From NCBI GenBank assembly GCA_963827635.1, contig CAWHBV010000009.1, positions 281,802-345,801 on the forward strand: a DNA stretch of 64,000 nt, read 5' to 3'. The stretch's first letter is position 1. Each line of letters opens with the position of its first letter. A model generated the notes under the pieces. The model saw nothing but the letters and a program-made list of their open reading frames with translations. It did not search any database and was not told the DNA's origin. Positions 1-43,166 of the stretch are shown here, piece by piece. Source of the stretch: an uncultured bacterium (lineage in GTDB: Bacteria; Acidobacteriota; Aminicenantia; Aminicenantales; Saccharicenantaceae). Both the position numbers and the translations under genes were made by a program.

Positions 1-346
1 CGCGGCCCTCTGGGGACAGGCGGCCTGGTCGGCCGTGCTCTGCCTGTCGGGGACCTACGCCTCGCTCTACGAGTACATGGTCTTCGCCCTGCTCCTCTTC
101 TTCGCCGCGACCGGACTGGCGGTCTTCGTCCTCCGCCGCCGGGCGCCGGACGCGGCCCGTCCCTACCGCGCCTGGGGCTATCCCGTCGTGCCGCTCGTCT
201 TCGTCGCCATGTGCCTGGCCGTCTTCCTGAGCATCGTCGTCTCGCAGCCGCTCAAGTCCCTGGCCGGGCTCGGCCTGCTCCTGGTCGCCATCCCCGTCTA
301 CGCCGTCTGGAAAGGCCGCGGAGCGAAAAGCGCGGACCGGCCGTGA
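1..346 (+). CDS. APC-superfamily amino acid/amine permease, C-terminal fragment (5' end outside window)
   Basis: The frame is open from the window edge to TGA 344-346. The tail is a run of hydrophobic helices (MVFALLLFFAATGLAVFVL, VVPLVFVAMCLAVFLSIVV, LGLLLVAIPVYAVW) with an RRRAPDAARPYRAWGYP loop typical of APC permease C-termini. Confidence 0.55.
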   Translation, partial: AALWGQAAWSAVLCLSGTYASLYEYMVFALLLFFAATGLAVFVLRRRAPDAARPYRAWGYPVVPLVFVAMCLAVFLSIVVSQPLKSLAGLGLLLVAIPVYAVWKGRGAKSADRP

Positions 347-412
347 AAAGGGGTTTCCCCCGGACGGGATTTCGTTTAAGATGAGAGGGCCGCAGGGCGA
401 ACGGACGAGACG

Positions 413-2194
413 ATGAGCGAAACAACGTACAGCGTCGAGATCTTCCCCGACCGGACCCGGGTCCGGGCCAAGTCCGGCGAGATCCTGGCCGACGTGCTGG
501 CCCGGGCCGGCATCGTCCTCAGCCTCTACTGCCACAAGCGGGGCATCTGCGGCAAGTGCGCCGTGCGCATCCTCAGCGGCCCCCTCCCCTTCCCCGCCGC
601 CCTCGAGGCCGCCCTGCTCGAAAGCCGCGGGCTCGGCCCCGACCACCGCCTGGCCTGCCTCTACGCCGTCACCAGCGATCTCGTCGTCGAGACCCTGCCC
701 GGGTCGCGGCTGGAGAAGGTCCCCGTCCTCGATTCGGGCGTTCCCTCGGCCGCCTTCGTCGATCCGGCCGTCAAGAAGCTGCCGCTCGTCCTGGAGAAGC
801 CGTCGCTCTACGCGCCCGTCGCCGTGGCCGATGCGCTCCGGGCGACGCTCCGATCCCCGGGGCTGCACCTGCCGCTGGCGACGCTCGCCAAGCTCGGCGG
901 CCAGTCGCTCGGTCCGGCCCGCAGGGTCACGGCGGTCCTGTACGAAGACCGTGAGATCCTCGACATCGAGCCCGAGGACGCTACGCAGGACATCTTCGGG
1001 CTGGCCGTCGACCTGGGGACGAGCACGATCGCGGCGGAGCTCGTCGATCTCCGGACCGGAAAGGCCGTCGACCGGGCCGCGGCGGTGAACGCCCAGAGCT
1101 CCTACGGCGCCGACGTCGTCTCGCGGATCACCTTCGCCTTCGAGAACCCCGACAATCTGAGGCGCCTGAAGACGGCCGCCGTCCAGCAGATCAACGACAT
1201 GGTCGGGACGATGTCCCGGCGGAGCGGCGTGCCGCGCCACCGCATCTACGACGCGGTCGTCGCCGGCAACACGGCCATGAACCACATCCTCTGCGGCGTG
1301 CCCGTCGATTCGCTGGCCCTGGCCCCGTTCCACGCGGTGTTCTCCGCCCTGCCGGCCCTGGCCGCCTCCGAGGTCGGGTTCAGCCTCCACCCCCAGGCCC
1401 GGCTCTACGTGGCGCCCAACATCAAGAGCTTCGTCGGCGGGGACATCACGGCCGGGCTCGTCGCCACGGATTTCGCGGCGACCGCCGGCACGGGCCTCTT
1501 CATCGATCTCGGCACCAACGGCGAGATCGTCCTCAAGAAGGGGTCGGAATTCGTGACCACGTCGACGGCCGCCGGGCCGGCCTTCGAGGGCATGAACATC
1601 AGCTGCGGCATGCTGGCCGTCCCCGGGGCCATCCACCGGGCCGAATGGACCAACGGCTTCAAGCTGGTCACGGTCGACGATCTTCCGCCCCAGGGCGTCT
1701 GCGGGACCGGGCTCGTCGACATCCTGGCCACGGCCCTCGACCGCGGCCTCCTCGGCCGCGACGGCCGCATCGCCGGGACGGAGAAGCGGATCCGGCTGAC
1801 CGACCGCCTGGCCCTGACCCAACAGGACGTCCGGGACGTCCAGCTCGCCGTGGCGGCCGTCCGGACGGGCGTGCGCCTGATGCTGCGGGAATTCCGGCTC
1901 GAAGCCGGCGACCTCGACCGGATCTTCGTCGCGGGCGCCTTCGGCAGCTCGCTCGACGTCGGGAACGCCGTGGCCCTCGGTCTCCTGCCCGACGTGCCCC
2001 GGGAGAGGATCGCCTTCGTCGGCAACGCCTCGCTCGCCGGGGCCCGGCTCCTTCTTCTCGCCCGTCCGGCCCGCGACGCCGCGGAGATCCTGGCCGGCAG
2101 GATCGCCCACGTCTCGCTGGCCACCCGCCCGGATTTCCAGGACGAGTTCGTCCGGGCCCTCGAATTCAGCCGCTATCCGGGAGGCGCCGCATGA
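413..2194 (+). CDS. ATP-dependent corrinoid reductive activase (RamA/RACo type: 2Fe-2S ferredoxin domain plus ASKHA/DUF4445 domain)
   Basis: 593-aa ORF. N-terminal Cys pattern YCHKRGICGKCAV...RLACLY (plant-type 2Fe-2S). ASKHA phosphate motifs AVDLGTSTI and FIDLGTNGE. ATGA overlap with the next gene. Confidence 0.8.
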   Translation: MSETTYSVEIFPDRTRVRAKSGEILADVLARAGIVLSLYCHKRGICGKCAVRILSGPLPFPAALEAALLESRGLGPDHRLACLYAVTSDLVVETLPGSRLEKVPVLDSGVPSAAFVDPAVKKLPLVLEKPSLYAPVAVADALRATLRSPGLHLPLATLAKLGGQSLGPARRVTAVLYEDREILDIEPEDATQDIFGLAVDLGTSTIAAELVDLRTGKAVDRAAAVNAQSSYGADVVSRITFAFENPDNLRRLKTAAVQQINDMVGTMSRRSGVPRHRIYDAVVAGNTAMNHILCGVPVDSLALAPFHAVFSALPALAASEVGFSLHPQARLYVAPNIKSFVGGDITAGLVATDFAATAGTGLFIDLGTNGEIVLKKGSEFVTTSTAAGPAFEGMNISCGMLAVPGAIHRAEWTNGFKLVTVDDLPPQGVCGTGLVDILATALDRGLLGRDGRIAGTEKRIRLTDRLALTQQDVRDVQLAVAAVRTGVRLMLREFRLEAGDLDRIFVAGAFGSSLDVGNAVALGLLPDVPRERIAFVGNASLAGARLLLLARPARDAAEILAGRIAHVSLATRPDFQDEFVRALEFSRYPGGAA

Positions 2195-3075
2195 GCCATC
2201 CCCTTCTCGACCGGGCCGCGATCCGGACCGTCCTCTTCGACGGGGCCATGGGCACCGAGCTCATGGCCCGCGGCCTTCCCCACGGCGGCGTGCCCGAGCT
2301 CTGGAACGTCGAGCGGCCGGAGGACGTCAAGAGCGTCCACGAAGCCTATTTCGCGGCCGGGGCCGACGTCGTCTCCACCAACAGCTTCGGCGCGACGCCG
2401 ATCAAGCTGGCCGCCCACGGGCTCGAGGCCCGGACCTACGAGCTGAACTTCGCCGCCGCCCGCCTGGCCCGGGAAAGCGCCCCGCCCGGACGCTTCGTCG
2501 CCGGCAGCGTCGGGCCGACCGGCAAGTTCCTCAAACCCCAGGGGCCCTGCCTCGAGGAGGAGTTCGTCGCCGCCTTCGCCGAGCAGGCCCGGGGCCTGGC
2601 CGACGGCGGCGCCCATCTCTTCATCGTCGAGACCCAGTACGACCTGCGCGAGGCCCTGGCGGCCCTGCGCGGCATCCGGAGCGTTTCGGCCCTGCCCGTC
2701 TTCGTCACCATGACCTTCAGCGCCTTCCCCCGGGGCTACTTCACCATCATGGGCGACTCGGCGGCCAAGGCCGCCGCGGAGCTCGGGCGGGCCGGCGCGG
2801 CCGCCGTGGGCGCCAACTGCACGCTCGCGAGCGACCAGATGGCCGGATGCGTCCGGGCCCTCAGGGCGGCCACGTCGCTGCCTCTCATCGCCCAGGCCAA
2901 CGCCGGCCAGCCCGTCGCCTCCCCCGACGGGACGATCGGCTACACCCAGAGCCTCGAGGATTACCTGCGGTTCGTCCCGGATATCGTCGCGGCCGGCGCG
3001 TCGTTCGTCGGCGGATGCTGCGGGACGACGCCGGCCTTCACCCGGGCCATGGCCCGGATCCTCGTCAAGGAGTGA
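2191..3075 (+). CDS. Stand-alone homocysteine S-methyltransferase-domain protein (zinc thiol methyltransferase, MetH/BHMT Hcy-domain type)
   Basis: Start ATG 2191 overlaps the upstream stop (ATGA). Contains LFDGAMGTEL and TNSFGAT blocks. All three zinc/thiol-activating Cys are present (GANCT and GGCCGTTP). Confidence 0.8.
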   Translation: MSHPLLDRAAIRTVLFDGAMGTELMARGLPHGGVPELWNVERPEDVKSVHEAYFAAGADVVSTNSFGATPIKLAAHGLEARTYELNFAAARLARESAPPGRFVAGSVGPTGKFLKPQGPCLEEEFVAAFAEQARGLADGGAHLFIVETQYDLREALAALRGIRSVSALPVFVTMTFSAFPRGYFTIMGDSAAKAAAELGRAGAAAVGANCTLASDQMAGCVRALRAATSLPLIAQANAGQPVASPDGTIGYTQSLEDYLRFVPDIVAAGASFVGGCCGTTPAFTRAMARILVKE

Positions 3076-3077
3076 CC

Positions 3078-3731
3078 ATGACCAACTCGGACCTTTTTCC
3101 CAGGATGAGCGAAGCCATCGTCGCCGGGGACCGCGAGAAGGCCGCCGGGCTCGCCGCCGAGGCGGTGCAGGCCGGGCTGGACCTCCCGGAAGTCGTCGAA
3201 CGGGGCTACCTCCCCGGCATCCAGAGGGTCGGCGAGCTCTGGGAACAGGGCGAATATTTCCTGCCCGAGCTCATCTCCAGCGCCGAGGCCATGAAAGCGG
3301 CCATGGCCGTTCTCGAACCCGAGTTCGAGCGCCGGCACATCGGCGCCCGGATGGGCGGCCGGATCGTCATCGGGACGGTCGAGGGCGACATCCACGACAT
3401 CGGCAAGAACCTCGTCGCGTCGATGCTCCAGGCCGGCGGCTTCGAGGTCTTCGACCTCGGGGCCGACGTCAAGCTCGAGCGCTTCGTCGACAAGGCCGAG
3501 GAGGTCGGCGCGGGGCTGATCTGCCTGTCGGCCCTGCTGACGACGACGATGACGAACCAGCGCCGCCTCATCGGGATCCTCGAAGAACGGGGCCTGCGCG
3601 GCAAGTACAGGGTCCTGGTCGGCGGCGCGCCGGCCAGCCGGCGCTGGGCCGAGGAGATCGGCGCGGACGGATACGCCGAGAACGCGGTCGCCGCCGTCAA
3701 GCTGGCCAAGTCCCTGGCCGGACGGGGCTGA
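3078..3731 (+). CDS. Cobalamin (corrinoid)-binding protein, MtbC/MttC/MtgC-like
   Basis: 217 aa. B12-binding DxHxxG motif (GDIHDIGKN), SALLTTT and VLVGGAP blocks, with an N-terminal helical cap domain. Starts 2 nt after the upstream stop. Confidence 0.85.
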   Translation: MTNSDLFPRMSEAIVAGDREKAAGLAAEAVQAGLDLPEVVERGYLPGIQRVGELWEQGEYFLPELISSAEAMKAAMAVLEPEFERRHIGARMGGRIVIGTVEGDIHDIGKNLVASMLQAGGFEVFDLGADVKLERFVDKAEEVGAGLICLSALLTTTMTNQRRLIGILEERGLRGKYRVLVGGAPASRRWAEEIGADGYAENAVAAVKLAKSLAGRG

Positions 3732-3778
3732 GCCTCCGGCGCGGGACGCCCGGAAATCCAGGCACGGGAGAAACGGAC

Positions 3779-5248
3779 ATGTTCGATGCCAAAAGACCGA
3801 AGTTGGAGCTGCTCGACAGGGCCTTCGTCGAAAAGATCGTCGACGAGGCGCTGACCCTCCTCGACCGGCACGGGGTCATGGTCGAGAACACCGAGGCCGC
3901 GCGCCTCCTCGGGGAGGCCGGGGCCCGGGTCGACGCCGGGACCCAGCGGGTCCGGCTCGGCCGCAAGCTCGTGGAGGACTGCCTGGCCTCGACCCCGGCC
4001 ACGATCGTTCTCTACGACCGCAAGGGCGAGAAGGCCTTCGCCGTCGGCGGGGACGAGGTCCACTTCGATCCCGGCTCGGCGGCCGTGACCATTCTCGACC
4101 ACGCGACGCAGGAGGAGCGCAAGGCCTCCACGCGGGACGTCGTCGATCTCTACAAGCTCGTCGAGACGCTCGATCACCTCCATTTCCAGAGCACGGCGCT
4201 CGTCGCGTCGGACGTCCCGGCCGCCGTCTCCGACGCCCACCGCCTCTACCTCGGCCTGCTCCTCTCGGAGAAGCCGTTCGTCACCGGGACCTTCCGCGTC
4301 GAGGGTTTCGGGCCCATGAAGGCGCTCCTGGCCGCCGTCCGCGGCGGCGAACGGGAGCTGCGCTGCAAGCCGCTGGCCATCTTCGACGCCTGTCCCTCCC
4401 CTCCCCTCAAGTGGAGCAACCTGACCGCCCAGAGCCTCGTCGACTCCGCCCGGGCCGGCATCCCCTCCGAGCTCATCGGGATGGGGATGACCGGGGCGAC
4501 CTCGCCGGCCACGATCGCCGGGACGCTCGTCCAGCACACGGCGGAGAACCTCAGCGGCCTGGCCATCTGCCAGGCCGCCCGAGCGGGCGCGCCGGTCATC
4601 TTCGGCGGCTCGCCCTCGAGCTTCGACATGAGGAAAGGGACGACTCCGATGGGCGCGATGGAAACCCTGATGATCGACGCGGCCTACGCCCAGATCGGCA
4701 AGTTCCTGAATCTGCCCACCCACGCCTACATGGCCTTGAGCGACGCCAAGGTCAACGACCCCCAGGCCGGCTTCGAGACGGCGCTCGGCGCGGTGCTGGC
4801 CGCCCTGGCCGGCGTCAACGTCGTCTCGGGCCCCGGCATGCTCGACTACGAGAGCTGCCAGAGCCTCGAGAAGCTGGTCATCGACGACGGCATCTGCGCC
4901 CTGGTCTACCGCCTGCTCGACGGCATCGCCCAGCGGGACGAGCCCGTGGCTCTGGGGCTCTTCGAGGGCTTCCGGGAAGGGATGTCCTTCCTGACCACGG
5001 CCCACACCCGTCAGTGGTACCGCAAGGAGCACATCCCGTCCGGGCTCGCCGACCGGGATCCCTACGACGCCTGGGTGGCGGCCGGCCGGACCACCATCGT
5101 CGACAAGGCGCACGCCGAGGTCCTCAAGCGTCTCGGGAAATACGCCGCGCCGCCCCTGGCCGAAGGCCTGCGGAAAGAGCTCGACGGGATCATGGCCGCC
5201 TACGCCCGCTCGTCGGGCGTCGCGGCCCCGCTCTTTCCCGGATCGTAA
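3779..5248 (+). CDS. MttB-superfamily (trimethylamine methyltransferase family) methyltransferase, non-pyrrolysine type
   Basis: Uninterrupted 489-aa ORF with no in-frame TAG. Length and blocks (FDPGSAAV, FDACPSPPLKWS, GMGMTGATSPAT, PMGAMET) fit the MttB family. Adjacent to its corrinoid protein. Confidence 0.8.
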   Translation: MFDAKRPKLELLDRAFVEKIVDEALTLLDRHGVMVENTEAARLLGEAGARVDAGTQRVRLGRKLVEDCLASTPATIVLYDRKGEKAFAVGGDEVHFDPGSAAVTILDHATQEERKASTRDVVDLYKLVETLDHLHFQSTALVASDVPAAVSDAHRLYLGLLLSEKPFVTGTFRVEGFGPMKALLAAVRGGERELRCKPLAIFDACPSPPLKWSNLTAQSLVDSARAGIPSELIGMGMTGATSPATIAGTLVQHTAENLSGLAICQAARAGAPVIFGGSPSSFDMRKGTTPMGAMETLMIDAAYAQIGKFLNLPTHAYMALSDAKVNDPQAGFETALGAVLAALAGVNVVSGPGMLDYESCQSLEKLVIDDGICALVYRLLDGIAQRDEPVALGLFEGFREGMSFLTTAHTRQWYRKEHIPSGLADRDPYDAWVAAGRTTIVDKAHAEVLKRLGKYAAPPLAEGLRKELDGIMAAYARSSGVAAPLFPGS

Positions 5249-5263
5249 AGGCCGGCGAAGGGC

Positions 5264-6664
5264 TCAGTCGAGGTCCCAGACCTCGAGGTATTCGGGCAGT
5301 TCGACCGTCCAGCCCCTGTCCCGTCTGATGCCTTCGGCCGTCTTGGCGGCCACGTCGGCGTCCCCGTGGGTGACGAACAGGCGCCGGGGCGGCGTCTTGA
5401 AACCGTCCAGCCAGCGGCGCAGGCCGGCCCGGTCGGCGTGGGCGGAGAAACCGTTGATCTTGGCCACCTTGGCCCGGACCGGGAGGGTCCGGCCGAGGAT
5501 GCGGACCTCGGGCTCGCCTTCGAGGATCTGACGGCCCAGCGTGTCGCGCGCCTGGTAGCCGACGAAGAGAACGGTCGATTCCGGCCGGAAGATGTTCTGG
5601 GCGAGGTGGTGCTTGATCCGGCCCCCGGTGATCATGCCCGAGCCGGCCATGATGACGGCCGGCCCGCGGGCGTCGTTGATGGCCTTGGACTCTTCGGGCG
5701 TACGGACGATGGTCAGGCCGGGGAAGCGGAAGGGGTTGCGCCCGGCCGCGAAGAGACGGCGGGTCTCGTCGTCGAAGGCCCCGTCGTTGCGCTCGAAGGC
5801 CGCGGTCACCTCGCGGGCCATCGGGCTGTCGAGGAAGACCGGCACCGGCGGGATGGCCTGGGCGTAGACGAGCCGGCTGAGGTGGTACATCAGGTCCTGG
5901 GCCCGCTCGATGGCGAACGTCGGGATGACGACGTTGCCGCCCGCCGCGACGGTCTCCCGGATCGTCCGGGCGAGGAGCTCTTCGACGCGGCCCGGGTCCT
6001 CGTGGTCCCGGTCGCCGTAGGTCGACTCCATGACCGCGTAATCGGCGGCCTCGAAAAGCGACGGGTCGCGGACGAAGGGCATGTTCCACTGGCCGATGTC
6101 GCCCGAGAAAACGAGCCGCCGGACGGTCTCCCGCTCCCGGACGGTGATCTCGATCATGGCCGAACCGAGGATGTGGCCGGCGTCCCGGAAGCGGACCGAA
6201 ACGCCGCGCCCGAGCTCCGTCGTGACGTCGTAATCGACCTCGTCGACGAGCGGCATGGCCGCCTGCACGTCCTCGACCGTGTAGAGCGGGACGACCGGGT
6301 GGTCCACCGTCCGGTTCTCCTTCTGGTGGCGGCGCTTCTTGTAGGCCGCGTCCTCCTCCTGGATCTCGGCGGCGTCCATGAGCGCGATCGACAGGATGTC
6401 GGCCGTCGCGTCCGTGGTCAGGATGGTCCCCGAGAAGCCGTCCCGGACGACCTTGGGGATGAGCCCCGAGTGGTCCAGGTGGGCGTGCGTGAGCAGGATG
6501 AAATCGAGGTCCTCCGGGGGGACGGGCAGGGACTCCCAGTTCCTCTGGAGAAAGGACCGTTCCTGGTACAGGCCGCAGTCGACGAGGAGCTTCAGGCCGC
6601 CCGCGTCGAGGAAATAGCACGAGCCCGTCACCTGGCGGGCGGCTCCGAAGAAAGCCAGCTTCAT
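5264..6664 (-). CDS. MBL-fold beta-CASP ribonuclease (RNase J/CPSF-like)
   Basis: Start at MKLAFFGAARQVTGSC. HxHxDH motif (THAHLDHSG). C-terminal beta-CASP blocks (NGFSAHAD, FVTHGD). ATGA overlap with the upstream membrane gene. Confidence 0.8.
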   Translation of the reverse strand: MKLAFFGAARQVTGSCYFLDAGGLKLLVDCGLYQERSFLQRNWESLPVPPEDLDFILLTHAHLDHSGLIPKVVRDGFSGTILTTDATADILSIALMDAAEIQEEDAAYKKRRHQKENRTVDHPVVPLYTVEDVQAAMPLVDEVDYDVTTELGRGVSVRFRDAGHILGSAMIEITVRERETVRRLVFSGDIGQWNMPFVRDPSLFEAADYAVMESTYGDRDHEDPGRVEELLARTIRETVAAGGNVVIPTFAIERAQDLMYHLSRLVYAQAIPPVPVFLDSPMAREVTAAFERNDGAFDDETRRLFAAGRNPFRFPGLTIVRTPEESKAINDARGPAVIMAGSGMITGGRIKHHLAQNIFRPESTVLFVGYQARDTLGRQILEGEPEVRILGRTLPVRAKVAKINGFSAHADRAGLRRWLDGFKTPPRRLFVTHGDADVAAKTAEGIRRDRGWTVELPEYLEVWDLD

Positions 6665-7545
6665 GTCACCTCTCCGATCAGTAGGGATGGGATCTGTAGA
6701 ATTCCGCCTGGGCCGCCGACGAAAAGCATCCGGACGAGGAGCCGGAACAGGATGTAGATCTGCATGACGGCGAAGGCGGCGACGACGGGCGCCGGGCCGG
6801 GGCCGCCGAGCGGCCCGAGGGCGGCGGAAAGGGCGACCGTGCCCGCCAGAGTGGCGCCGACGATGAGGAGGTAGAGGGCCCAGGCCCGGAAGAAGCGCCT
6901 CTTGAGGAAGATCAGCGCGTGGCGGAGGGCCTTGAGCACCCTCCGTTCGTCGTCGGCGACGACGGCGATGCGGGTGTAGTCGACGACCATGTGGACGACC
7001 GAGAGCAGGAGCAGGGCGATGAGGAAATGGGCGTTCGACAGGATGAGCGGAAGCCACTCGGTCGGGGCGCTCTTCATCGCCGGTCCGATCAGGGCCGAGA
7101 CGAGCTCGAGCACGATGCCGAAGGTCAGGAAGAGGAAGACCAGGGAGACGAGGAAGATCCGCGCGAACCGCCCGAAATAGCGTCCGCAGTCGCCGGTGAA
7201 CGCGGCCAGGGTCGCCTTGCCTTCCCTGTCGAGGAGGCGCCCGAAGATGCCGCCGTTGAGGAAGACCTGGAGGGCGAGGTAGAGGACGGCGGCGACGAGG
7301 AGGCCGGCGAGAAGGGCCGGCAGCGCGTCCCCGTATTTGAGGGCGGTCTCGCCCAGCCACATGAGGTCGGCCGGCCGGACGCTCGAGCCGAGGAGGGAGT
7401 GCCCCAGCTCGGTCTGCGCGATGGTCAGGAAGGGCACGGCCGCGGCTGCGGCGAAAACGACGTTGACGGCGTAGAGCACGGCCAGGACGAGAGGCTTCCG
7501 GACCGTCGTCCCCAGCCCGTTGGCGATGGCTTTGAACACGCCCAT
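6661..7545 (-). CDS. Polytopic membrane protein of unknown function
   Basis: 294 aa from MGVFKAIANG, preceded by GGAGAGAG. About 6-7 hydrophobic helices. No recognisable catalytic motif. Confidence 0.55.
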   Translation of the reverse strand: MGVFKAIANGLGTTVRKPLVLAVLYAVNVVFAAAAAVPFLTIAQTELGHSLLGSSVRPADLMWLGETALKYGDALPALLAGLLVAAVLYLALQVFLNGGIFGRLLDREGKATLAAFTGDCGRYFGRFARIFLVSLVFLFLTFGIVLELVSALIGPAMKSAPTEWLPLILSNAHFLIALLLLSVVHMVVDYTRIAVVADDERRVLKALRHALIFLKRRFFRAWALYLLIVGATLAGTVALSAALGPLGGPGPAPVVAAFAVMQIYILFRLLVRMLFVGGPGGILQIPSLLIGEVT

Positions 7546-7556
7546 GGTCTCTCTCC

Positions 7557-9701
7557 TCAGATCCAAGATCCGATGAATTGGAACAGGTTCTGCAGCAGGA
7601 ACAGGTGCTGGGTGATCATCTTGACGACGTTCCTGCGCAGGCCGTCGGCGCCGCGGCTGTTGTTGGCCAGGTTCTCGTCGATCAGCCAGACGCCGGCGGG
7701 ATCGATCTCGGCGCTGGCGACCTCGACCGGCTTGACGAACTCCAGCCGGGCCCAGCGGGCTTGCCCGTCCCAGGTCCGGGTCTCGGTCGTCCCGTCCTTG
7801 AAGCGGACGAGGACCTCGACCCGCGCGTCGCCCCCGAGCCGGGCCTCCCCGAAGCGCCTCAGGACGACCGTGGTCCGGTAGGCCGCCTGCGGCGGTCCCC
7901 CGGGAGCGTCCGGCCGCGGTCTTTTCGAGCTCCGCGATCTTCTTGTCGGTCCATTCCGTGCGGGCGCCGTCCGCGTCGTAGACGCCGCGGCGGCGGAGGG
8001 GGACCTTGGCCGAGGACACGGAGGCGATGCCGTAGTCGAAGGCCTCGGTGCCTTCGAGGAGCTCGTCGAAGAACCAGGTCATGTCCTTGCCGGAGAGCTC
8101 GTTGACGACGGCGACGAAATCGGACTTGGTCGGATGCTTGAACCGGTAGCGCATGTGGTAGGTCCGCATGATCCTCGACCAGGCCGGCTCGCCGAGGAGC
8201 CGTTCGAGCGTCTCGAGGAGCGTCGCGGCGCGCATGTAGACGTTGGCGCCGTAGCTGCCGCTGTTGTAGAAGTTCCAGGACCAGGCGGTCACGGGATCGT
8301 AGCGGACGGTGTTGATGGCCGCGGCCCGGTTGAGCTCGAAATCGAAATTCCGGGGCAGGCGGAGGAACCAGTCGAGGGGAAAACCCTTGAAAACGAAGGA
8401 CATGGCCCCGGGCCCGTAGGCCTTGGCCAGGACCTTTCCCGTCGAGTAGGTGTTGAAGCCCTCGTCGAGCCAGGCCGCCTCGAACTCGTTGTTGGCCGCG
8501 AGTCCGTACCAGTAGCCGTGGCCGAACTCGTGGACGATGACGCCCTCCGGCGAGAGGACGTTGCGGCTGGGCAGGACCCGCGTGCCCGCGGTGAACAGGG
8601 TCGGGTACTCCATGCCGCCGCTCCCGGTCCGGAAGGGCGGATCGACCATGGTCACGGTCTCGTAGGGATAGGGGCCGTACCAGAGGCCGTAATACTTGAG
8701 GGCCGCCCGGAGGGCCCGGAAGTGGCGCTCGATCTGGCCTTTGTGCTCCGGCGCGATGAGCAGGGTCATCCGGACGTCGGGGAGCACGGACCTCTTCGAG
8801 CGGCAGGCCGAGGCGCTCGGCGGTCTCCGCGTATTCCGCCGTGCGTGACTTCCCGATCGCCGATGAAGTCCCTTTCGATCTTGATGTAGCGCGGGTCGGC
8901 CGTCCAGGCGAAATCGTGGACCATGGCCTGACGGTAGGTGTAGGTCGTCCGTCCGGCGGCGCCGTCGACCGCGGCCCCGGTCTGTTTGCCCGAGGACCCG
9001 ACGACGAAACGGCTGGGGACGTCGATGTGGACGACGAAATCGGCGAAGTCGGCGAAGAACTCCGAGTTCTGATGGTAGGCGTGGGCGTTCCAGCCTTTGC
9101 CCGCCTCGTAGACCCCGGGCTTCGGGTACCACTGGGCGATGAAGAAGGAATCCCGGTAGTAGCCCGACCGGGCCACGGTCCGGGGGACCTTGCTGCGGAA
9201 CTCGAGCCGGATCCGGACGCTTTCGCCGGGCTGGACGGGCGCGGGAAAGAGGACCCGGGCGACGGTCTGGTCGTCGGGGTGCTCCGGTCCGTCGGGAGTG
9301 ACGTAGTGAAGGGTCGGCTTGAGATCGGAGCCGTCGGCCAGCCGGATGTCCGTGATGTCGATCCAGCCCCACTCCCCGTCGTCGGGCGCGGCGCCGCGGC
9401 TGAACATCGATTCCGCCGCGGCCTCGCGGAGGAAGGCGCTGTCCTCGTTCTTGAAGGCGTTCCAGTAGAGGTGGAGCAGCATGTCCGGGACCGCTTCGGC
9501 GGTGGGGTTGGTCCAGACGATCTCCTCCTTGCCGAGGAGCGTTTTTTCGGCGTCGTCGAGCTCGACCCAGATCTCGTAGCGGAGCCCGGGCGCGCCGGCC
9601 GCCGGGACGGCGGCGGGTCCTGCGAAGGCCGCAGGGCCGCCGGCAGGACGAGGAGCGCGGCGCGCCAGGAGGCAGACGGGTACGGTTCTTTTTATCGGCA
9701 T
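7557..9701 (-). CDS. M1-family zinc metallopeptidase (frameshifted in this assembly)
   Basis: HEFGHGYW (HExxH) and WLDEGFNTY (third Zn ligand) lie in the middle segment. The frame must be switched near 8839, 8789 and about 7915 to follow one continuous homologous protein down to TGA 7557-7559. Confidence 0.75.
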
Positions 9702-9726
9702 GAGGAACTCCCTTGACGGGCCCAAA

Positions 9727-10181
9727 TCAGCCCTTCAGCCATTCCTCCCAGGCGGACCGCCTGGGGAAATTGATGAACGTGAGGAGAAGGGAAGCGAACA
9801 GGAGCCTGTAGAAGTCGACGTTCTGCCCGGCGACGAGGAAGAGGGCCAGGCCGGCGACGGCCGGGATCTCGCCGAGGACCAGCATCACCAGGGAGGCGCT
9901 CTGGAGACGCCGGAGCGCGGCCGGGAGTGTCGTCGTCCGGGCGCCGGCGGATGAGCCGGGGCCTGAGGAGAAGGAGGAGCAGGATGACGACGGCCGCCGC
10001 CCCGTAGGCCGCGTACCGGAGGGGCTGGGCGTCGACGCCTTGGGCGAAGCCGCGGAACGGTTCTTCGACGCCGGCGGAGGATCTCGACGAGGGCGAGGTA
10101 GATCGCGAGGCTCAGGGCGAGGGCCGCTCCGGCCATGGCGGCGGGCCTGATGAAGTCCCGGATCTCATCCTGACGGTCCAT
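9727..10181 (-). CDS. Small membrane protein, unknown function (two apparent frameshifts)
   Basis: MDRQDEIRDFIRPAAMAGAALALSLAIYLALVE continues through hydrophobic segments only if the frame is switched near 10078 and about 9935. It ends ...FINFPRRSAWEEWLKG, TGA 9727-9729. Confidence 0.35.
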
Positions 10182-10228
10182 GACGGCCTCCTGACCCGGC
10201 GGCGGGTCGTCCCGGCCCGGTCATCCGG

Positions 10229-10257
10229 ATTATATGAGATTGCGTCCCGTCAGGCAA
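10229..10257 (-). promoter_or_regulatory. Sigma70-like promoter for the small-membrane-protein/M1 peptidase operon
   Basis: The minus strand reads TTGCCT-17 nt-TATAAT, followed by a 5' UTR of about 40 nt with AGGAGG. Confidence 0.45.
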
Positions 10258-10299
10258 TCGCCGCGGCGCGGCCGCTCCCCGGGCGGTTCCCCGGAGGCT

Positions 10300-11466
10300 T
10301 CAGTCGACGTAGAGGAGGAAGCCCTTCAGGTAGGACGTCTCGGGGTGATAGACGTTGACGGGATGGTCGAAGGCCTGCCGGTGCTTCTGAAGGATGCGCA
10401 CCCGCCTCCCCGCTTCGTGGGCGGCCTGGAAGACGACCTGCTGGAAGAGCCCTTCGTCGACGAAGTGGGAGCAGGAGAAGGTCAGCAGCAGGCCCGGCGC
10501 TTTGATCCTCTGCAGGGCCAGCCGGTTGATGTCCTTGTAGCCGCGGCAGGCGGCGACGACGTCGGTTCTCTTCTTGGCGAAAGCCGGCGGGTCGAGGATG
10601 ACGAAGTCGTGGTCGAGGGCGGGTTCGCGGAGGAACTCGAACACGTCCGCGGCGAAGAACAGGCCCGACGCCGCGGAGAGCCCGTTGAGCTCGAAGTTCT
10701 CCTGGGCCAGCTCCAGGGCCGCGGCCGACGTGTCGACCGAATCGGCCCGGACGGCCCCTCCGAGGAGGGCGCAGACGGAGAACGAGCCGGTGTAGGCGAA
10801 GCAGTTGAGGACGCGGCGGCCGGCGGCGAATTCCCGGACGAGCTTCCGGGATTCCCGCTGATCGAGATAGAAGCCGGTCTTCTGGCCCTGGGCCCACCCG
10901 ACCGAGTAAGGGATGCCCGCTTCGAGGATGCGGCCCTTGTCGACCGCCTCTCCCGCGAGCAGAGCTTCCAGCGGCTCGAGGCCCTCTTCCCTCCGGGCCG
11001 GCAGGTCGGAGCGCTCGATGACCGAGCGGGGCCGGAGCGAGGCCGAGAGGACGTCGACGACGAGGGGCTTCAGCTTCTCCATGCCCAGGGTCGCGATCTG
11101 GATGACGAGGACGTCGTCGTACATGTCGGCGATGAGCCCCGGCAGGCCGTCGCCCTCCGCGTTGACCAGCCGGCGGGCGTTGGTCGAGGCGGGGTCGAAC
11201 AGCCCGGCCCGGAGCTTCAGGGCCCGTTCGAGGCTGCCTCGGACCGCCGCTTCGGGAGGTTCCGCGCCGAAGGCGATCATGCGCCCGGTGATCGAGCTCT
11301 TCCGGTTGAAATAGCCGTGTCCGAGGATCTCTCCGACCGAGCTCCGGACGGGCAGGATGTCGCCGTCGGCGAAGTCGGGCAGGTCGCGGATGGCCCCGGA
11401 GAAGATCCAGTGGTGCCTGTTCCTGACGGCCTTGTCGCGGCCCGGCTTGAGGACGACGGCGTTCAT
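10300..11466 (-). CDS. rlmI: SAM-dependent 23S rRNA (cytosine-C5) methyltransferase RlmI-like
   Basis: 388 aa from MNAVVLKPGRDKAVRNRHHWIF (PUA-like N-terminus). SAM fold blocks VLNCFAYTGSFSV and ILDPPAF. Confidence 0.75.
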   Translation of the reverse strand: MNAVVLKPGRDKAVRNRHHWIFSGAIRDLPDFADGDILPVRSSVGEILGHGYFNRKSSITGRMIAFGAEPPEAAVRGSLERALKLRAGLFDPASTNARRLVNAEGDGLPGLIADMYDDVLVIQIATLGMEKLKPLVVDVLSASLRPRSVIERSDLPARREEGLEPLEALLAGEAVDKGRILEAGIPYSVGWAQGQKTGFYLDQRESRKLVREFAAGRRVLNCFAYTGSFSVCALLGGAVRADSVDTSAAALELAQENFELNGLSAASGLFFAADVFEFLREPALDHDFVILDPPAFAKKRTDVVAACRGYKDINRLALQRIKAPGLLLTFSCSHFVDEGLFQQVVFQAAHEAGRRVRILQKHRQAFDHPVNVYHPETSYLKGFLLYVD

Positions 11467-11889
11467 GCGGGCCTCCCGGCCGGCCCGTCGCGCCGGGCGA
11501 GCAGCCGCACGACCGGCCGGTCCGGCTTGGAGAACTCCGCCTCGTCCATGTCGGCAGGGCGCGAGCCAGCGGATCTCGTCGTGGTCGGTGAGCCGGAGAT
11601 CGTCGCCGAGAAGCTCGGTCCGGAAGACGACGAGCTCGAAGCTCGCGATCTCCCCCGAGAACGGGACCGTGCAGAGGTGCTCCCCGACCCTCGCCGGAAC
11701 GCCCAGCTCCTCCGCGAGCTCGCGCGCGAGGCCCCGTTCGGGCGTCTCCCCCGCCTCGAGCTTTCCGCCGGGGAATTCCCAGAGCCCGCCGGCCACGAGC
11801 TCCGGCTTCCGCCGGGCGACGAGCACCTTGCCGTCCCGCTCGATGACCGCCGCCGTCACCGTTCTCACCCGCTTCTCCTCTGCTTCCAT
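11463..11889 (-). CDS. NUDIX hydrolase, MutT-like (one apparent frameshift)
   Basis: Nudix box GGLWEFPGGKLEAGETPERGLARELAEELG. After a 1-nt correction near 11556 the C-terminus reads ADMDEAEFSKPDRPVVRLLARR and stops in an ATGA overlap with rlmI. Confidence 0.7.
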
Positions 11890-11908
11890 GCCTCTGCTTT
11901 TCCGCCCC

Positions 11909-11937
11909 ATCTTATTCTTCCGCCCCGGCCTTGGCAA
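11909..11937 (-). promoter_or_regulatory. Sigma70-like promoter for NUDIX-rlmI
   Basis: The minus strand reads TTGCCA-17 nt-TAAGAT, 19 nt upstream of ATG 11889. Confidence 0.4.
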
Positions 11938-11961
11938 GAGGGTGAGCCGGGGGCCGAAATA

Positions 11962-11970
11962 TGCTAGAAT
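11962..11970 (+). promoter_or_regulatory. Extended -10 element (TGCTAGAAT) for glgA, 9 nt from the ATG
   Basis: TG-C-TAGAAT at 11962-11970. ATG at 11980. No Shine-Dalgarno sequence in between. Confidence 0.5.
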
Positions 11971-11979
11971 AGCCGAACC

Positions 11980-13425
11980 ATGAAAGTCGCATTCCTAGCC
12001 TCCGAAGTCATCCCCTACGCCAAGACGGGCGGCCTGGCCGATGTGGCCGGGGCCCTGCCCAAGTTCCTGAGCCGGCTCGGCGCCGACGTCCGGGTCTTCA
12101 TGCCCCTCTACCGGGAGGTCCGCAAGAAGAACCTGCCGCTCGAGCCCGTCCTCGTGGCGCTCCCGGTCGACATGGGCGGCCGCATCGAATCCTGCGCCGT
12201 CTTCGCCCACCGGGCGGACGGAGTGACCGTCCTCTTCATCGACCGGCCCGAATATTACGACCGCGACCAGCTCTACGGGACGCCGGCCGGCGATTATCCG
12301 GACAACGCCGAGCGCTTCGCCTTCTTCTGCCGGGCCTCGCTCGAGACCATGAAAGCCCTGGATTTCCGGCCCGACGTCCTCCACGGACACGACTGGCAGG
12401 CGGCGCTGGCGTTCGCCTACCTGCGGTTCGTCTACGCCGGCGACCCGTTCTTCGCCGGCCTGCGGTCCCTCTTCACCATCCACAACCTGGCCTACCAGGG
12501 CCTGTTCGAAAAGGAGGCGCTCGGGCGCATCGGGCTGCCGGATTCCCTCTTCACGATGGACGGCCTCGAGTTCTTCGGCAAGGTCAACGCGCTCAAGGCC
12601 GGCATCCTCTACGCCACGGCCGTCACCACGGTCAGCCCGCGCTACAGCCGCGAGATCCAGACCCCCGAATTCGGCTGCGGCCTCGACGGGCTCCTCCGCC
12701 ACCGGTCGGACGCCCTCCACGGCATCCTCAACGGCGTCGATTACCGGGACTGGAACCCCGTGACCGACGCCCTGATCCCGCGCAACTTCGGTCCGGCGGA
12801 CATGGCCGGCAAGAAGGCCTGCCGCGACGAGCTCGCCCGCATGTTCGGTCTCTCCGCCCCCGAAGGGCTTCCCGTCGCCGGCATGGTCACGCGCCTGGCC
12901 GGGCAGAAGGGCCTCGACATCGTCTGCGAAGCGCTGGACGACCTTCTCGGCCTGGGCCTGACGCTGGTCATCTTGGGGACGGGCGAGGCCAAGATCCAGG
13001 ATTTCCTCGCCGCCGCCCAGAAGAAGAACCCGTCGCGGATCGGTCTCAAGATCGCCTTCGACGAGAGGATCGCCCACACGATCTACGCCGGAAGCGACCT
13101 CTTCCTGATCCCCTCGCGCTACGAACCCTGCGGCCTGACCCAGATGTACGCGATGAAGTACGGCACCGTGCCCGTCGTCCGGGCCACGGGCGGTCTCGAC
13201 GACAGCGTCCAGGAGTTCGATCCCCGCTCCGGCCGGGGCAACGGCTTCAAGTTCGCCGAAGCCGAGGCCGGGCCGCTCCTCGAAGCGGCCGCCCGCGCGG
13301 TCCGTGTCTTCGGCAGGCCTCAGGAGTGGCGCAGCCTCGTCGGGAACTGCATGGCCGCGGATTTCTCCTGGGAGCGCTCTGCGGCGGCCTACCTCGACCT
13401 CTACGGCAAGATCGCGGCTACCTGA
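11980..13425 (+). CDS. glgA: Glycogen synthase (ADP-glucose type)
   Basis: 481 aa. N-terminal KTGGLADV motif (YAKTGGLADVAGALP). GT5 blocks HDWQAAL and PSRYEPCGLTQMYAMKYGT. Confidence 0.9.
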   Translation: MKVAFLASEVIPYAKTGGLADVAGALPKFLSRLGADVRVFMPLYREVRKKNLPLEPVLVALPVDMGGRIESCAVFAHRADGVTVLFIDRPEYYDRDQLYGTPAGDYPDNAERFAFFCRASLETMKALDFRPDVLHGHDWQAALAFAYLRFVYAGDPFFAGLRSLFTIHNLAYQGLFEKEALGRIGLPDSLFTMDGLEFFGKVNALKAGILYATAVTTVSPRYSREIQTPEFGCGLDGLLRHRSDALHGILNGVDYRDWNPVTDALIPRNFGPADMAGKKACRDELARMFGLSAPEGLPVAGMVTRLAGQKGLDIVCEALDDLLGLGLTLVILGTGEAKIQDFLAAAQKKNPSRIGLKIAFDERIAHTIYAGSDLFLIPSRYEPCGLTQMYAMKYGTVPVVRATGGLDDSVQEFDPRSGRGNGFKFAEAEAGPLLEAAARAVRVFGRPQEWRSLVGNCMAADFSWERSAAAYLDLYGKIAAT

Positions 13426-14458
13426 CCGGGGCCGGGGGGCGCAGGAACTCGGCGGCCGTCTCCGGCGGGACCGGATTGATGTAGAAACCCGTCCCCCACT
13501 CGAAGCCCGCGACCTTGGTCAGGATCGGAAAGATCTCCAGGTGCCAGTGGTAGCTCTGGTCGATGTCCGGCCAGCCCTTGAGGGCCAGGGCCCGGTTGGG
13601 CGCCTGGTGGAGGACCATGTTGTACGGGGGGTCCCCGACCGTGTCCTTGAGCCGGGTCAGGACCTGTTTGAGCGTCTCGGCCAGGCTCAGGAGCTCGTCT
13701 TCGCGCACGTCGGTGAAGAAGGCCGAGTGCCGCTGCGGGAAGATCGCCATCTCGAACGGGAACCGGGAGGCGTAGGGGGCGAACGCGGTGAAGTGACGGC
13801 CGCGCAGGACCAGCCTCTTCGCGGCGGCCTCCTCCTCGCGGAGGATGCGGCAGAAGCCGCATTCCTTGAAGCCCCGGAAGAGCCGGTCGGCCCCGTAGAT
13901 CTCCTCCTTGATCCTCTTCGGGACGATGGGCGTGGCCACGATCTGCGAGTGCGGGTGGCTCAGGGAGGCGCCCGCCTCCTTGCCCTTGTTCTTGAAGAGC
14001 TGGACGTACTGGTAGTGGAGCTCGCTCTCGATCGTCCGGATCCTCATCTGGAAGACGCGCAGGACGTCGCGGACGTGGGTGACCGGCAGGTCGGAGAGCT
14101 CGAAGGCGTGGACGGGGTTCTCGATGACCACTTCGTGGACGCCGACGCCCTCCATCCACTGGAAGACGCCCTCGCCGGCCTTGGGCGGCGGCGTGCCGCG
14201 GTTGAGGGCCGGGAACTTGTTGGGCACGACCCGGACCGTCCAGCCCGGCGCGTCGGCCGCGGTCCCGGACGGCCGGAGGGCGAAGACCTCCGGGGGCGTC
14301 TTGCTCTCGTTGCCCTCGCAGAACGGGCAGAAGCCGGCGGCCTCGGCCGCCGGCGCCGGGGCGCCGCCCGGCCGGAAATCGTCCGGCCGCTTGGCCCGCT
14401 CCGTCGCGATGATGACCCAGCGGCCGCTGATGAGGTCCTTTCTCAGTTCCGACATCAT
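13418..14458 (-). CDS. GalT-family (HIT superfamily) hexose-1-phosphate nucleotidyltransferase / possible NDP-glucose phosphorylase
   Basis: CPFCEGNE zinc knuckle and HPHSQ active-site motif (SLSHPHSQIV). ATGA overlap with the receiver gene. The 3' end overlaps glgA convergently by 8 bp. Confidence 0.75.
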   Translation of the reverse strand: MMSELRKDLISGRWVIIATERAKRPDDFRPGGAPAPAAEAAGFCPFCEGNESKTPPEVFALRPSGTAADAPGWTVRVVPNKFPALNRGTPPPKAGEGVFQWMEGVGVHEVVIENPVHAFELSDLPVTHVRDVLRVFQMRIRTIESELHYQYVQLFKNKGKEAGASLSHPHSQIVATPIVPKRIKEEIYGADRLFRGFKECGFCRILREEEAAAKRLVLRGRHFTAFAPYASRFPFEMAIFPQRHSAFFTDVREDELLSLAETLKQVLTRLKDTVGDPPYNMVLHQAPNRALALKGWPDIDQSYHWHLEIFPILTKVAGFEWGTGFYINPVPPETAAEFLRPPAPVR

Positions 14459-14811
14459 GCCCCCAGCATCTCTTTGATCTTGGCCTTGAGCTCGTCGAGC
14501 GAGGCCGACTTGACGACGTAGGCGTCGGCGGCCCAGGTCATGAAGTCCTCCTTGTAGCTCTGGTAGGCCGAGTTGATGATGATCGGGACGTCCTTGCGCA
14601 GGCCCATGATCTGGGTGATGAGCTCGATGCCGTTCTTGCCCGGCATGCGGATGTCCGTGACGATCAGGTCGAAGGCCGTCCGGCCGATCTCGGCCAGGGC
14701 GGCCTCGGCGTCGTGCACCGCGACGACGTCGTAGCCCTCCCGGCTCAGCTCCTCTTCGTAGAGCAGGCAGAGGGCCTTCTCGTCTTCGACGAGCAGGATC
14801 TTCTTTTTCAT
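14455..14811 (-). CDS. Single-domain response regulator (CheY-like receiver, no output domain)
   Basis: 118 aa. LLVEDE acidic pocket, phospho-Asp context LIVTDIRMPG, conserved SAY...K. Confidence 0.85.
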   Translation of the reverse strand: MKKKILLVEDEKALCLLYEEELSREGYDVVAVHDAEAALAEIGRTAFDLIVTDIRMPGKNGIELITQIMGLRKDVPIIINSAYQSYKEDFMTWAADAYVVKSASLDELKAKIKEMLGA

Positions 14812-40984: not shown

Positions 40985-41015
40985 TGCCGGGGATATCGCG
41001 ACAAGGAGAAGACGG

Positions 41016-43166
<2,151 letters not shown>

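Follow-up and report, generated by a model that had tools for sequence, protein, structure and literature searches.

At the start of a 64,000-nucleotide stretch of DNA from an uncultured Aminicenantia bacterium (contig CAWHBV010000009.1; 'the window' denotes this whole stretch), a reductive activase, a stand-alone homocysteine S-methyltransferase (Hcy-MT), a corrinoid protein and an MttB-superfamily methyltransferase are encoded one after another behind the end of a permease gene. To judge by its proteins, the block is a hybrid of a methylamine-type first methyltransferase (MT1) and corrinoid protein, a thiol methylase of the type found in cobalamin-dependent methionine synthase (MetH) and an acetogen-type activase. 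It raises the question of where a methyl group would enter such a system and on which acceptor it would leave. Our answer, to which we assign a probability of roughly 60%, is that the four genes behind the permease form a modular corrinoid-dependent methyl-transfer system ending in methionine synthesis.

The proposed reaction would run in three steps. The RACo-type activase, as known for its family, would use ATP and a low-potential electron to reduce the corrinoid from Co(II) to Co(I). The MttB homolog, acting as MT1, would then move a methyl group to Co(I) from an N-methylated compound that is probably neither glycine betaine nor another carboxylated quaternary amine. The Hcy-MT, acting as second methyltransferase (MT2), would finally hand the methyl group of CH3-Co(III) on to homocysteine activated by zinc, in the manner of the homologous MetH module. 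We infer this direction of transfer, the acceptor and the nature of the donor from the parts present. Overall, the system would be MetH taken apart, with an MttB-family barrel in place of the pterin-binding barrel and, in Aminicenantia, RACo in place of the S-adenosylmethionine (AdoMet) activation domain.

Were the module to work in this way, it would constitute a B12-dependent but folate-independent class of methionine synthase, placed between MetH and the methylamine methyltransferase systems. It would also assign a function and a class of substrates to a large branch of the MttB superfamily that is so far uncharacterised and whose pocket is unlike that of every characterised member, and it would change predictions of auxotrophy and B12 dependence for abundant uncultured lineages of sediment and groundwater and for Asgard archaea.

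Gene content and the homocysteine module

The five genes of the block are co-directional (Table 1). The end of the activase gene overlaps the start of the Hcy-MT gene by 4 nt (ATGA at 2191-2194), the corrinoid protein gene follows after 2 nt (an alternative GTG start lies at 3072) and a further 47 nt separate it from the MttB gene; the genes are thus tightly packed, and the overlap implies translational coupling. The G+C content at third codon positions is 0.94 in the two open reading frames (ORFs) of the region that a codon-usage filter listed, those of the permease end and the activase, which is typical of real genes in a genome of 70% GC, the value of the window; the other three genes were among those on which the codon-usage gene model was trained. 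The arrangement is not a product of chance: dozens of species representatives of Aminicenantia have this block in synteny. A first-pass annotation, made from the sequence alone, had listed this gene set, and re-reading of the sequence, Pfam and NCBIfam searches and motif checks bore it out in every detail of coordinates, overlap and gaps.

Table 1. Genes of the corrinoid block in the window, with the matches that identify them
Feature	Length	Position	Strand	Basis
APC-superfamily permease, 3' end, running off the window start	114 codons	2..346	+	AA_permease_2, TIGR00909, TIGR00908 and APC matches, all weak
RACo-type ATP-dependent reductive activase of corrinoid proteins	593 aa	413..2194	+	Pfam, PDB 3ZYY, Cys pattern
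Stand-alone homocysteine S-methyltransferase domain protein (zinc thiol methylase, putative MT2)	294 aa	2191..3075	+	PF02574
Corrinoid (cobalamin-binding) protein, B12 cap and Rossmann domain	217 aa	3078..3731	+	PF02607 and PF02310
Non-pyrrolysine MttB-superfamily methyltransferase (putative MT1)	489 aa	3779..5248	+	PF06253

The individual descriptions held up equally well, and the sequences leave no doubt about the protein families. The activase, announced as RamA/RACo-like with a 2Fe-2S cysteine pattern, consists of an N-terminal 2Fe-2S ferredoxin domain (Fer2, with C40, C46, C49 and C82) and the RACo_linker, Raco_middle and RACo_C_ter domains (ASKHA); its best solved structure is RACo of C. 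hydrogenoformans (3ZYY, 317 bits, full length), and it reaches 386 bits against the AcsV-like model of NCBIfam, under the model cutoff. The protein annotated as cobalamin-binding with a DxHxxG motif has this motif as DIHDIG at residue 104 and consists of a B12-binding_2 and a B12-binding domain. It scores 219 bits against TIGR02370 (cutoff 215.3) and 231 bits against the MtgC model, under that model's cutoff, and among structures it matches MttC best (7XCN, 188 bits), followed by 1Y80 (170), MtmC (147) and the B12 domain of MetH (108). The MttB homolog, annotated as free of in-frame TAG codons, has an unbroken frame, with Leu320 aligned to Pyl334 of 7XCL. A PF06253 MT1, a small DxHxxG corrinoid protein and a RACo activase are, by sequence, the parts of a modular corrinoid methyltransferase.

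The Hcy-MT contains PF02574 and no other domain (1.7e-66, residues 15-290). As annotated, its three zinc cysteines are in place (C210 in GANC, C276 and C277 in GGCCGT), and together with D17 (DGA) and E147 (VET) they are invariant across the clade. The cysteines align with those of T. maritima MetH, which we take to be Cys207, Cys272 and Cys273 of the published structure. In MetH and BHMT, the equivalents of the Asp and Glu contact the amino-acid moiety of homocysteine. The closest structures are two MetH entries (1Q7M, from T. maritima, and a second one, 8SSC; 141 bits each), ahead of E. coli MmuM (90 bits) and BHMT (60 bits). These comparisons support a MetH-type Hcy module as the acceptor enzyme and narrow the earlier assignment to a MetH/BHMT-type thiol methylase. 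All of the 120 best homologs are PF02574-only proteins of 292-299 aa with 71-97% identity, and those that carry a name belong to Ca. Aminicenantes, Aminicenantales or Acidobacteriota. In JGI annotation, the stand-alone module is called '5-methyltetrahydrofolate--homocysteine methyltransferase' or 'methionine synthase I (cobalamin-dependent)'. Homocysteine, the acceptor in our proposal, is generated by the organism, since the window encodes S-adenosylhomocysteine hydrolase (AhcY, two ORFs).

Could the protein instead be a conventional, corrinoid-independent methylase of the BHMT or MmuM type, as the first-pass annotation had allowed, using an imported sulfonium or betaine donor and merely lying beside an unrelated MttB/corrinoid catabolic module? 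We consider this very improbable. An APC-family permease does lie upstream, as in E. coli mmuPM, where such a permease precedes the methyltransferase gene; the NCBIfam BHMT model PRK07534 gives 202 bits, below its cutoff of 338; and in Ca. Aminicenans sakinawicola a member of the clade is an orphan apart from the MttB genes. But the MetH domains score higher; the gene fits tightly between those for the activase (4-nt overlap) and the corrinoid protein (2-nt gap); its tree parallels the tree of the linked MttB; and in other phyla the gene is found linked with one for a MetH activation domain.

Equally remote, or slightly more so, is an acceptor thiol other than homocysteine, with the module serving donor catabolism or the production of methylated thiols and not methionine; the invariant homocysteine-contacting Asp and Glu and the linkage to the MetH activation domain both speak against it. 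What favours it is that thiols other than homocysteine are tolerated by the zinc thiol methylase fold and that engineered corrinoid systems are reported to methylate non-native thiols (PMC13618148).

The metagenome-assembled genome (MAG) MFD09730.bin.2.49 is 95.5% identical to the window at the DNA level. Several genes elsewhere in the window look broken (41812-43070 (-), 6661-9701 (-), 14808-16157 (-), 44543-47713 (+) and 39988-41019 (+)), namely those for S-adenosylhomocysteine hydrolase (two ORFs), an M1 peptidase, a histidine kinase, an M16 peptidase running into formiminotransferase-cyclodeaminase (FTCD) and the tail of gpsA. They split or enter out-of-frame Arg/Pro-rich stretches, a pattern that suggests erroneous indels from long-read metagenome assembly and not pseudogenes. 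All four operon genes are intact; in one related locus (L001), mttB is fragmented in the same manner.

Linkage across phyla and the pterin module

On long contigs of Aminicenantia, the order permease-RACo-Hcy-B12-MttB is kept between the same housekeeping flanks as in the window, with parAB upstream and genes for a beta-CASP RNase, an M1 peptidase, an RlmI-like protein, a NUDIX protein and GlgA downstream. In four of these loci (L001-L004), parA-parB lies directly beside the operon (~4300-6300), upstream of the permease and beyond the part covered by the window. The surveys described below rest on the flanks of matches, with the best 80 loci taken per scan.

Anchored on the Hcy-MT, 80 species-level loci of GTDB were collected and their neighbours classified with phmmer and hidden Markov models (HMMs). 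The corrinoid-Hcy-MttB trio extends beyond Aminicenantia to Zixibacteriota, Krumholzibacteriota, Bradymonadales, Heimdallarchaeota (six loci) and Promethearchaeota (nine loci, often as MttB-B12-Hcy-MttB). Other contexts in the sample were full MetH, MetH lacking its activation domain beside metF, YitJ-type Hcy+MetF fusions, Hcy / Pter-B12-React splits and orphan Hcy proteins of the MtgE type in Alphaproteobacteria. In 12 of the 22 trio loci outside Aminicenantes, an ORF of ~220 aa behind the Hcy gene matches an HMM of the MetH activation domain, and PF02965 exceeds its Pfam cutoff in L014 (36.9 bits), L026 (42.9 bits) and L125 (30.6 bits); the nine Promethearchaeota loci of this set gave neither a RACo nor a PF02965 match. 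Because PF02965 stands together with Hcy, corrinoid and MttB genes, the pterin barrel is the one MetH module that these operons lack, and MttB stands in its stead. In sister lineages, a stand-alone MetH activation domain thus takes the place of RACo in the same operon, which ties the module to methionine synthesis.

In neighbour-joining trees, the linked Hcy-MTs form one clade, apart from the domains of fused MetH and YitJ and sister to the alphaproteobacterial MtgE-type orphans, and its internal grouping mirrors the tree of the linked MttBs. Together with the conserved gene order, this co-evolution supports the view that the Hcy-MT, corrinoid protein, MttB and activase behave as one evolutionary unit across many phyla.

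The MttB-anchored surveys carry no bias towards Hcy genes. Two scans, each matching at least 557-577 species-level stretches with the clade motifs, gave 147 non-redundant loci, of which 97 had enough flank (+-8-10 kb) to be assessed. A corrinoid protein gene is a neighbour in 85 of these (88%) and an activase gene in 80 (82%; RACo in 38, PF02965-like in 46 and both in four), and an Hcy-MT gene lies within 5 kb in 59 (61%), so that the pairing of a PF02574-only gene with MttB and a corrinoid protein, for which the first-pass annotation had suggested a survey, recurs widely. A pterin module was found next to a single locus (1%) and MetF next to none (0 of 97). Outside Aminicenantia, B12-Hcy-PF02965-MttB is the dominant layout (31 of 74 loci). 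Within Aminicenantia, the layout of the window dominates among closer relatives; in more divergent subclades, the order is RACo-B12-MttB or B12-PF02965-MttB and the Hcy gene lies elsewhere.

Two further observations concern these layouts. In Aminicenantia, the activase linked to corrinoid protein and MttB alternates between the RACo type and a stand-alone MetH-type AdoMet activation domain, with both present in a few loci (L088-L166, for example L144, L125, L151, L156 and L164); it looks as if the system for corrinoid reactivation had undergone non-orthologous replacement within a single class. In Ca. Aminicenans sakinawicola (L010, L128/L236; contig AWNV01000011.1), the clade-type Hcy-MT lies a few tens of kb from B12-MttB-PF02965, alone among genes for short-chain dehydrogenases/reductases, the glycine-cleavage P-protein and ornithine cyclodeaminase.

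The alternative that deserves most attention is a hub like the proteobacterial MtgBCDE system, in which the corrinoid protein is shared and a pterin-binding methyl-corrinoid:tetrahydrofolate (THF) methyltransferase encoded elsewhere mainly drains methyl groups into catabolism or mainly feeds them in from methyl-THF towards methionine; the Hcy-MT would then be only a methionine-synthase arm and methyl-THF would not be bypassed. We regard this as unlikely, though well worth keeping in view. In Proteobacteria, mtgD is often unlinked, so the arrangements match, and the window itself encodes FTCD and AICAR formyltransferase, from which it follows that the organism uses folates. Moreover, two loci (L174/L241 and L242) carry corrinoid-MttB-Pterin_bind-Hcy-MT in one operon. 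The first of these (Gemmatimonadota, CP070758.1, 7217-11194) has an SHSE-type MttB, named for the pocket residues described below, a Pterin_bind gene (9498-10295; PF00809, 63 bits) and an Hcy-MT gene (10289-11194) that overlaps it by 7 nt; by its sequence it is a complete MtgBCDE-like set in one operon outside Proteobacteria, and it served as a positive control for detection of the pterin module.

Against the hub stands the distribution of the pterin module itself. The first-pass annotation had named regular co-occurrence of a pterin-type MT2 as grounds for abandoning its proposal, and at locus level 96 of the 97 assessable loci are free of one. In the window, searches with tblastn (E. coli MetH domains, MetF and MetE; E<=1) gave no pterin domain, activation domain, MetF or MetE, and iterated HMMs run on its six-frame ORFs with filters off (--max) gave no pterin domain, PF02965 or MetF. 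In addition, the operons outside Aminicenantia typically hold all MetH modules but the pterin one already. A contrast set of 80 loci (the best 80 of 307) was anchored on the stand-alone pterin module of L174, and most of its members belong to Bacillota and Desulfobacterota, in which MtgA/MtqA systems are classically found. Their MttB pockets are MtgB-like or of other kinds (YRHY, THGA, SFHG and similar), and an Hcy-MT is present in only three of the 80, two of which are SHSE-type operons. No record with an Aminicenantes title occurs among these best 80 of 307 pterin-module relatives, where two titled 'uncultured Eubacteriales' (L249, L251) are ambiguous.

Several points weigh against our reading. 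The genome was searched over the 64 kb of the window, and a pterin-type MT2, MetH or MetE may lie elsewhere; the bypass of methyl-THF named in the first-pass annotation is therefore at most a possibility for this organism, which also has folate enzymes. Linkage to the Hcy-MT is strong but not obligatory: 39% of the 97 assessable clade loci have no adjacent Hcy-MT gene, and in about ten loci (about 10%) MttB is solitary. The two operons with a Pterin_bind gene show that the same parts can coexist with a pterin module, and Electryoneota MAGs that have a cluster of this type also encode full MetH (Williams 2022, PMC9324843), a finding that favours the hub as well. In Phaeobacter, the presence of methyl donors down-regulates mtgE, and a route from MtgB through MtgC to MtgE is hypothetical there. 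The trees, computed by neighbour joining from MAFFT alignments, have no support values, and the HMMs were made ad hoc. Targeted literature searches found no biochemical or genetic test of the cluster in any organism.

Other features of the surveyed loci are as follows. At the Rfam gathering threshold, no AdoMet, cobalamin or other riboswitch was found upstream of the operon in seven loci and the window, nor was any found in the intergenic region of L005 at E<=1. Class I AdoMet-dependent methyltransferase genes flank the module in Promethearchaeota (L033, 12307-12987 (+)) and Zixibacteriota (L014, 3595-4506 (-)), and the former, from a Loki genome, is weakly similar to the NCBIfam model CpaM, 'corrinoid protein-associated methyltransferase' (42 bits, cutoff 180). 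In the Heimdallarchaeota locus L026, two genes lie between the activation-domain gene and MttB (11530-14187 (-)), one for a fusion of a B12-binding domain with a glutamate-mutase E-like region and one of the octopine/nopaline dehydrogenase family, with an HxlR regulator gene and an APH/choline-kinase-like gene upstream. Many loci that are clearly Aminicenantia by gene order and sequence are titled 'uncultured Eubacteriales bacterium' (L011, L013, L091, L099, L102, L113 and others, from binchicken co-assemblies), which appears to be a mismatch of taxonomic labels in the source records.

The MttB pocket and the methyl donor

The MttB homolog matches PF06253 (MTTB) over its full length (4.8e-87) and appears about equally far from the pyrrolysine (Pyl) enzyme MttB (7XCL, 213 bits, 32% identity) and from MtgB of D. 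hafniense (2QNE/9YCE, 208 bits, 30%), with 4YYC at 131 bits. NCBIfam gives no subfamily assignment, as its sole match is the generic model TIGR02369 (377 bits, below its cutoff of 525). The linked MttBs of Aminicenantia, Zixibacteriota, Krumholzibacteriota, Bradymonadales, Heimdallarchaeota and Promethearchaeota form one clade by neighbour joining, and additional MttB paralogs of Loki genomes are placed outside it. Identity to the window protein is 46-52% across phyla and domains in the tree and 49-97% as a general range for the clade, compared with 30-32% to Pyl-MttB and MtgB. The phylogenetic placement proposed in the first-pass annotation thus ends in a distinct clade, outside MtgB and Pyl-MttB.

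In MtgB, glycine betaine is bound through cation-pi contacts with Y97 and F356 and through R312 and H348 at its carboxylate, and R312 is common to every characterised member, each of which uses acidic quaternary amines (Picking et al. 2026, PMC13080624). All four residues are replaced in the window protein, which has S100, H315, S350 and E358 at these positions. Of 147 clade members, 133 carry this S-H-S-E signature (SHSE) and another ten carry S-Q-S-E. Because the residues that bind glycine betaine are replaced, this compound is probably not the donor, and carnitine, proline betaine and gamma-butyrobetaine are unlikely donors too. The betaine-type donors that the first-pass annotation had suggested therefore fit the SHSE clade poorly. 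The uniform pocket points to one donor that is probably common to the whole clade.

Could that donor be a folate? The SHSE MttB might be a non-homologous replacement of the pterin barrel that takes its methyl group from N5-methyl-tetrahydrofolate, or from methyl-tetrahydromethanopterin in archaea, so that the module would be an ordinary folate-dependent methionine synthase made from unusual parts. MttB occupies the place of the pterin module in an otherwise complete set of MetH parts, one invariant pocket spans bacteria and Asgard archaea with no consistent transporter outside Aminicenantia, neither the Arg that binds the carboxylate nor the aromatic cage of quaternary-amine users is retained, and MttB is structurally similar to the barrels of MeTr and MetH (PMC9842639). 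Yet the characterised members of the MttB family all use methylamines or quaternary amines and none is known to use a pterin; the permease is constantly linked in Aminicenantia, suggesting an imported substrate; and in L174 and L242, where this MttB stands beside a pterin module, it would be redundant. On balance, we find a folate donor improbable and retain an N-methylated compound as the likelier source of the methyl group.

The permease offers a hint about this compound. Its full-length ortholog in L005 has 481 aa and scores 220 bits against TIGR00909, 204 bits against TIGR00911 and 190 bits against BasC (6F2G), which assigns it, from similarity, to LAT/SLC7-type transporters or exchangers of alpha-amino acids. 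The earlier proposal that the adjacent permease imports a quaternary or methylated amine was consequently revised, as the protein resembles an amino-acid transporter and not a betaine carrier. It is adjacent to and co-directional with the block in at least 24 Aminicenantia loci; outside Aminicenantia this linkage is absent and the block has no transporter of any kind as a consistent neighbour. As a matter of speculation, a permease of this type hints at a methylated amino acid as donor, and it might either import the donor or exchange it for the product.

A broader proposal is possible but doubtful: that the SHSE clade, which has at least 550 species-level matches in GTDB, represents a new donor specificity and that the module, as a folate-independent, B12-dependent methionine synthase, is the main or only means of homocysteine remethylation in Aminicenantia and in several uncultured phyla, including Heimdallarchaeota and Promethearchaeota. 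We also considered the reverse reaction, with methionine or a methylthiol as donor and an amine as acceptor, and rejected it by reasoning, since the methyl group of a thioether lacks the activation needed to move to Co(I) and the MetH activation domain and MetH-like Hcy domain point forward.

Separately, the Rfam model PYLIS_3 matches above its gathering threshold (38-48 bits) inside the non-Pyl MttB genes of L033 (11828-11926), L026 (15691-15790), L002 (12567-12666) and L007 (12545-12644), corresponding to about 4736-4835 of the window, whose own copy is under threshold. The match begins at the codon equivalent to that for Pyl, which encodes Leu and is not TAG. These matches probably reflect homology of the coding sequence with Pyl-mttB, consistent with a clade nearer to MttB than to MtgB.

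Relation to known systems

The first-pass annotation knew of no described system with this composition, a statement that does not stand in view of a cluster reported by Williams et al. 2022 (Environ Microbiol, PMC9324843) and of the genetics of MtgBCDE (Price 2018, Mausz 2025). The Williams cluster, found in Ca. Electryoneota and 'diverse bacteria', consists of a non-Pyl MttB/MtgB homolog, a homocysteine S-methyltransferase, a corrinoid protein and an AdoMet activation protein, and its authors hypothesised, without experiments, corrinoid-dependent methionine synthesis from an unidentified methyl donor (PMC9324843). That hypothesis is the one to which the window leads us as well. The three core parts (MttB homolog, Hcy-MT and corrinoid protein) are the same in the window, the Electryoneota MttB homolog is likewise described as outside MtgB and MttB and nearer to MttB, and the layout B12-Hcy-PF02965-MttB of Zixibacteriota, Krumholzibacteriota, Latescibacterota and others fits the published description. 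Compared by description and not by sequence, the window differs in having a RACo-type activase instead of a PF02965 protein and in its LAT-type permease.

In the MtgBCDE system of Ruegeria pomeroyi and Phaeobacter inhibens, a stand-alone PF02574 protein (MtgE) and a corrinoid protein (MtgC) shared with the PF06253 protein MtgB are accompanied by a RamA-like activase with ferredoxin and DUF4445 domains, and genetics show that the parts make methionine. P. inhibens was found to have a three-part MetH of Hcy module, pterin module and corrinoid protein, together with the RamA-like activase (Price 2018, PMC5764234); the corrinoid protein and pterin module were later shown to be shared with MttB-family glycine betaine methyltransferases, with MtgE as the stand-alone Hcy module (Mausz 2025, PMC12478193), and in a preprint of 2025 MtgBCD and MtgECD are regarded as complexes that compete with each other. 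The MtgE-type Hcy proteins, including orphans of Rhodobacteraceae and SAR116, are the sister group of the window clade. However, the proteobacterial system needs the pterin-binding MtgD both for methionine synthesis and for betaine catabolism, whereas the pterin module (PF00809) is absent from the window and from nearly all clade loci over the flanks assessed. Further differences are that mtgE is usually unlinked and is repressed with donors, whereas the Hcy-MT gene of the window lies inside the operon; that the window MttB belongs to another clade without the betaine-binding residues; and that its corrinoid protein is MttC-like and not CmuA-like, as reported there. No DUF1638 match to Pfam occurred among the neighbours scanned, for which no dedicated DUF1638 search was run.

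MtgABC of Desulfitobacterium hafniense and MtpB, MtcB, MtyB and MthB of Eubacterium limosum follow the same logic of MT1, corrinoid protein, MT2 and RamA-type activase, with Leu at the Pyl position. Their MT2 is a pterin-binding methyl-corrinoid:THF methyltransferase and not a zinc homocysteine methylase, the pocket of MtgB (Y97/R312/H348/F356) is exchanged for S/H/S/E at 30% identity, and the window has no neighbouring pterin-type MT2 (MtgA), whereas YRHY pockets do adjoin pterin modules. With methanogen MttB-MttC-RamA-MtbA systems, the block shares an MttB-family MT1, an MttC-like corrinoid protein and a thiol acceptor, but it has no pyrrolysine, a MetH-type MT2 instead of MtbA with its URO-D fold and a RACo-type (2Fe-2S) activase instead of RamA. 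With MetH, finally, it shares the zinc Cys triad of the Hcy domain, the B12 cap and DxHxxG domain and, in sister lineages, PF02965, but its parts are separate polypeptides, the MttB barrel stands where the pterin domain would be, RACo replaces PF02965 and the corrinoid protein is nearer to MttC than to the B12 domain of MetH. A chemical precedent comes from biocatalysis, where, as reported in 2026 (PMC13618148), mixed components of the MtgBC and thiol-methylase types methylate thiols from glycine betaine. What is new in the Aminicenantes form is the combination with a RACo activase and a LAT-type permease.

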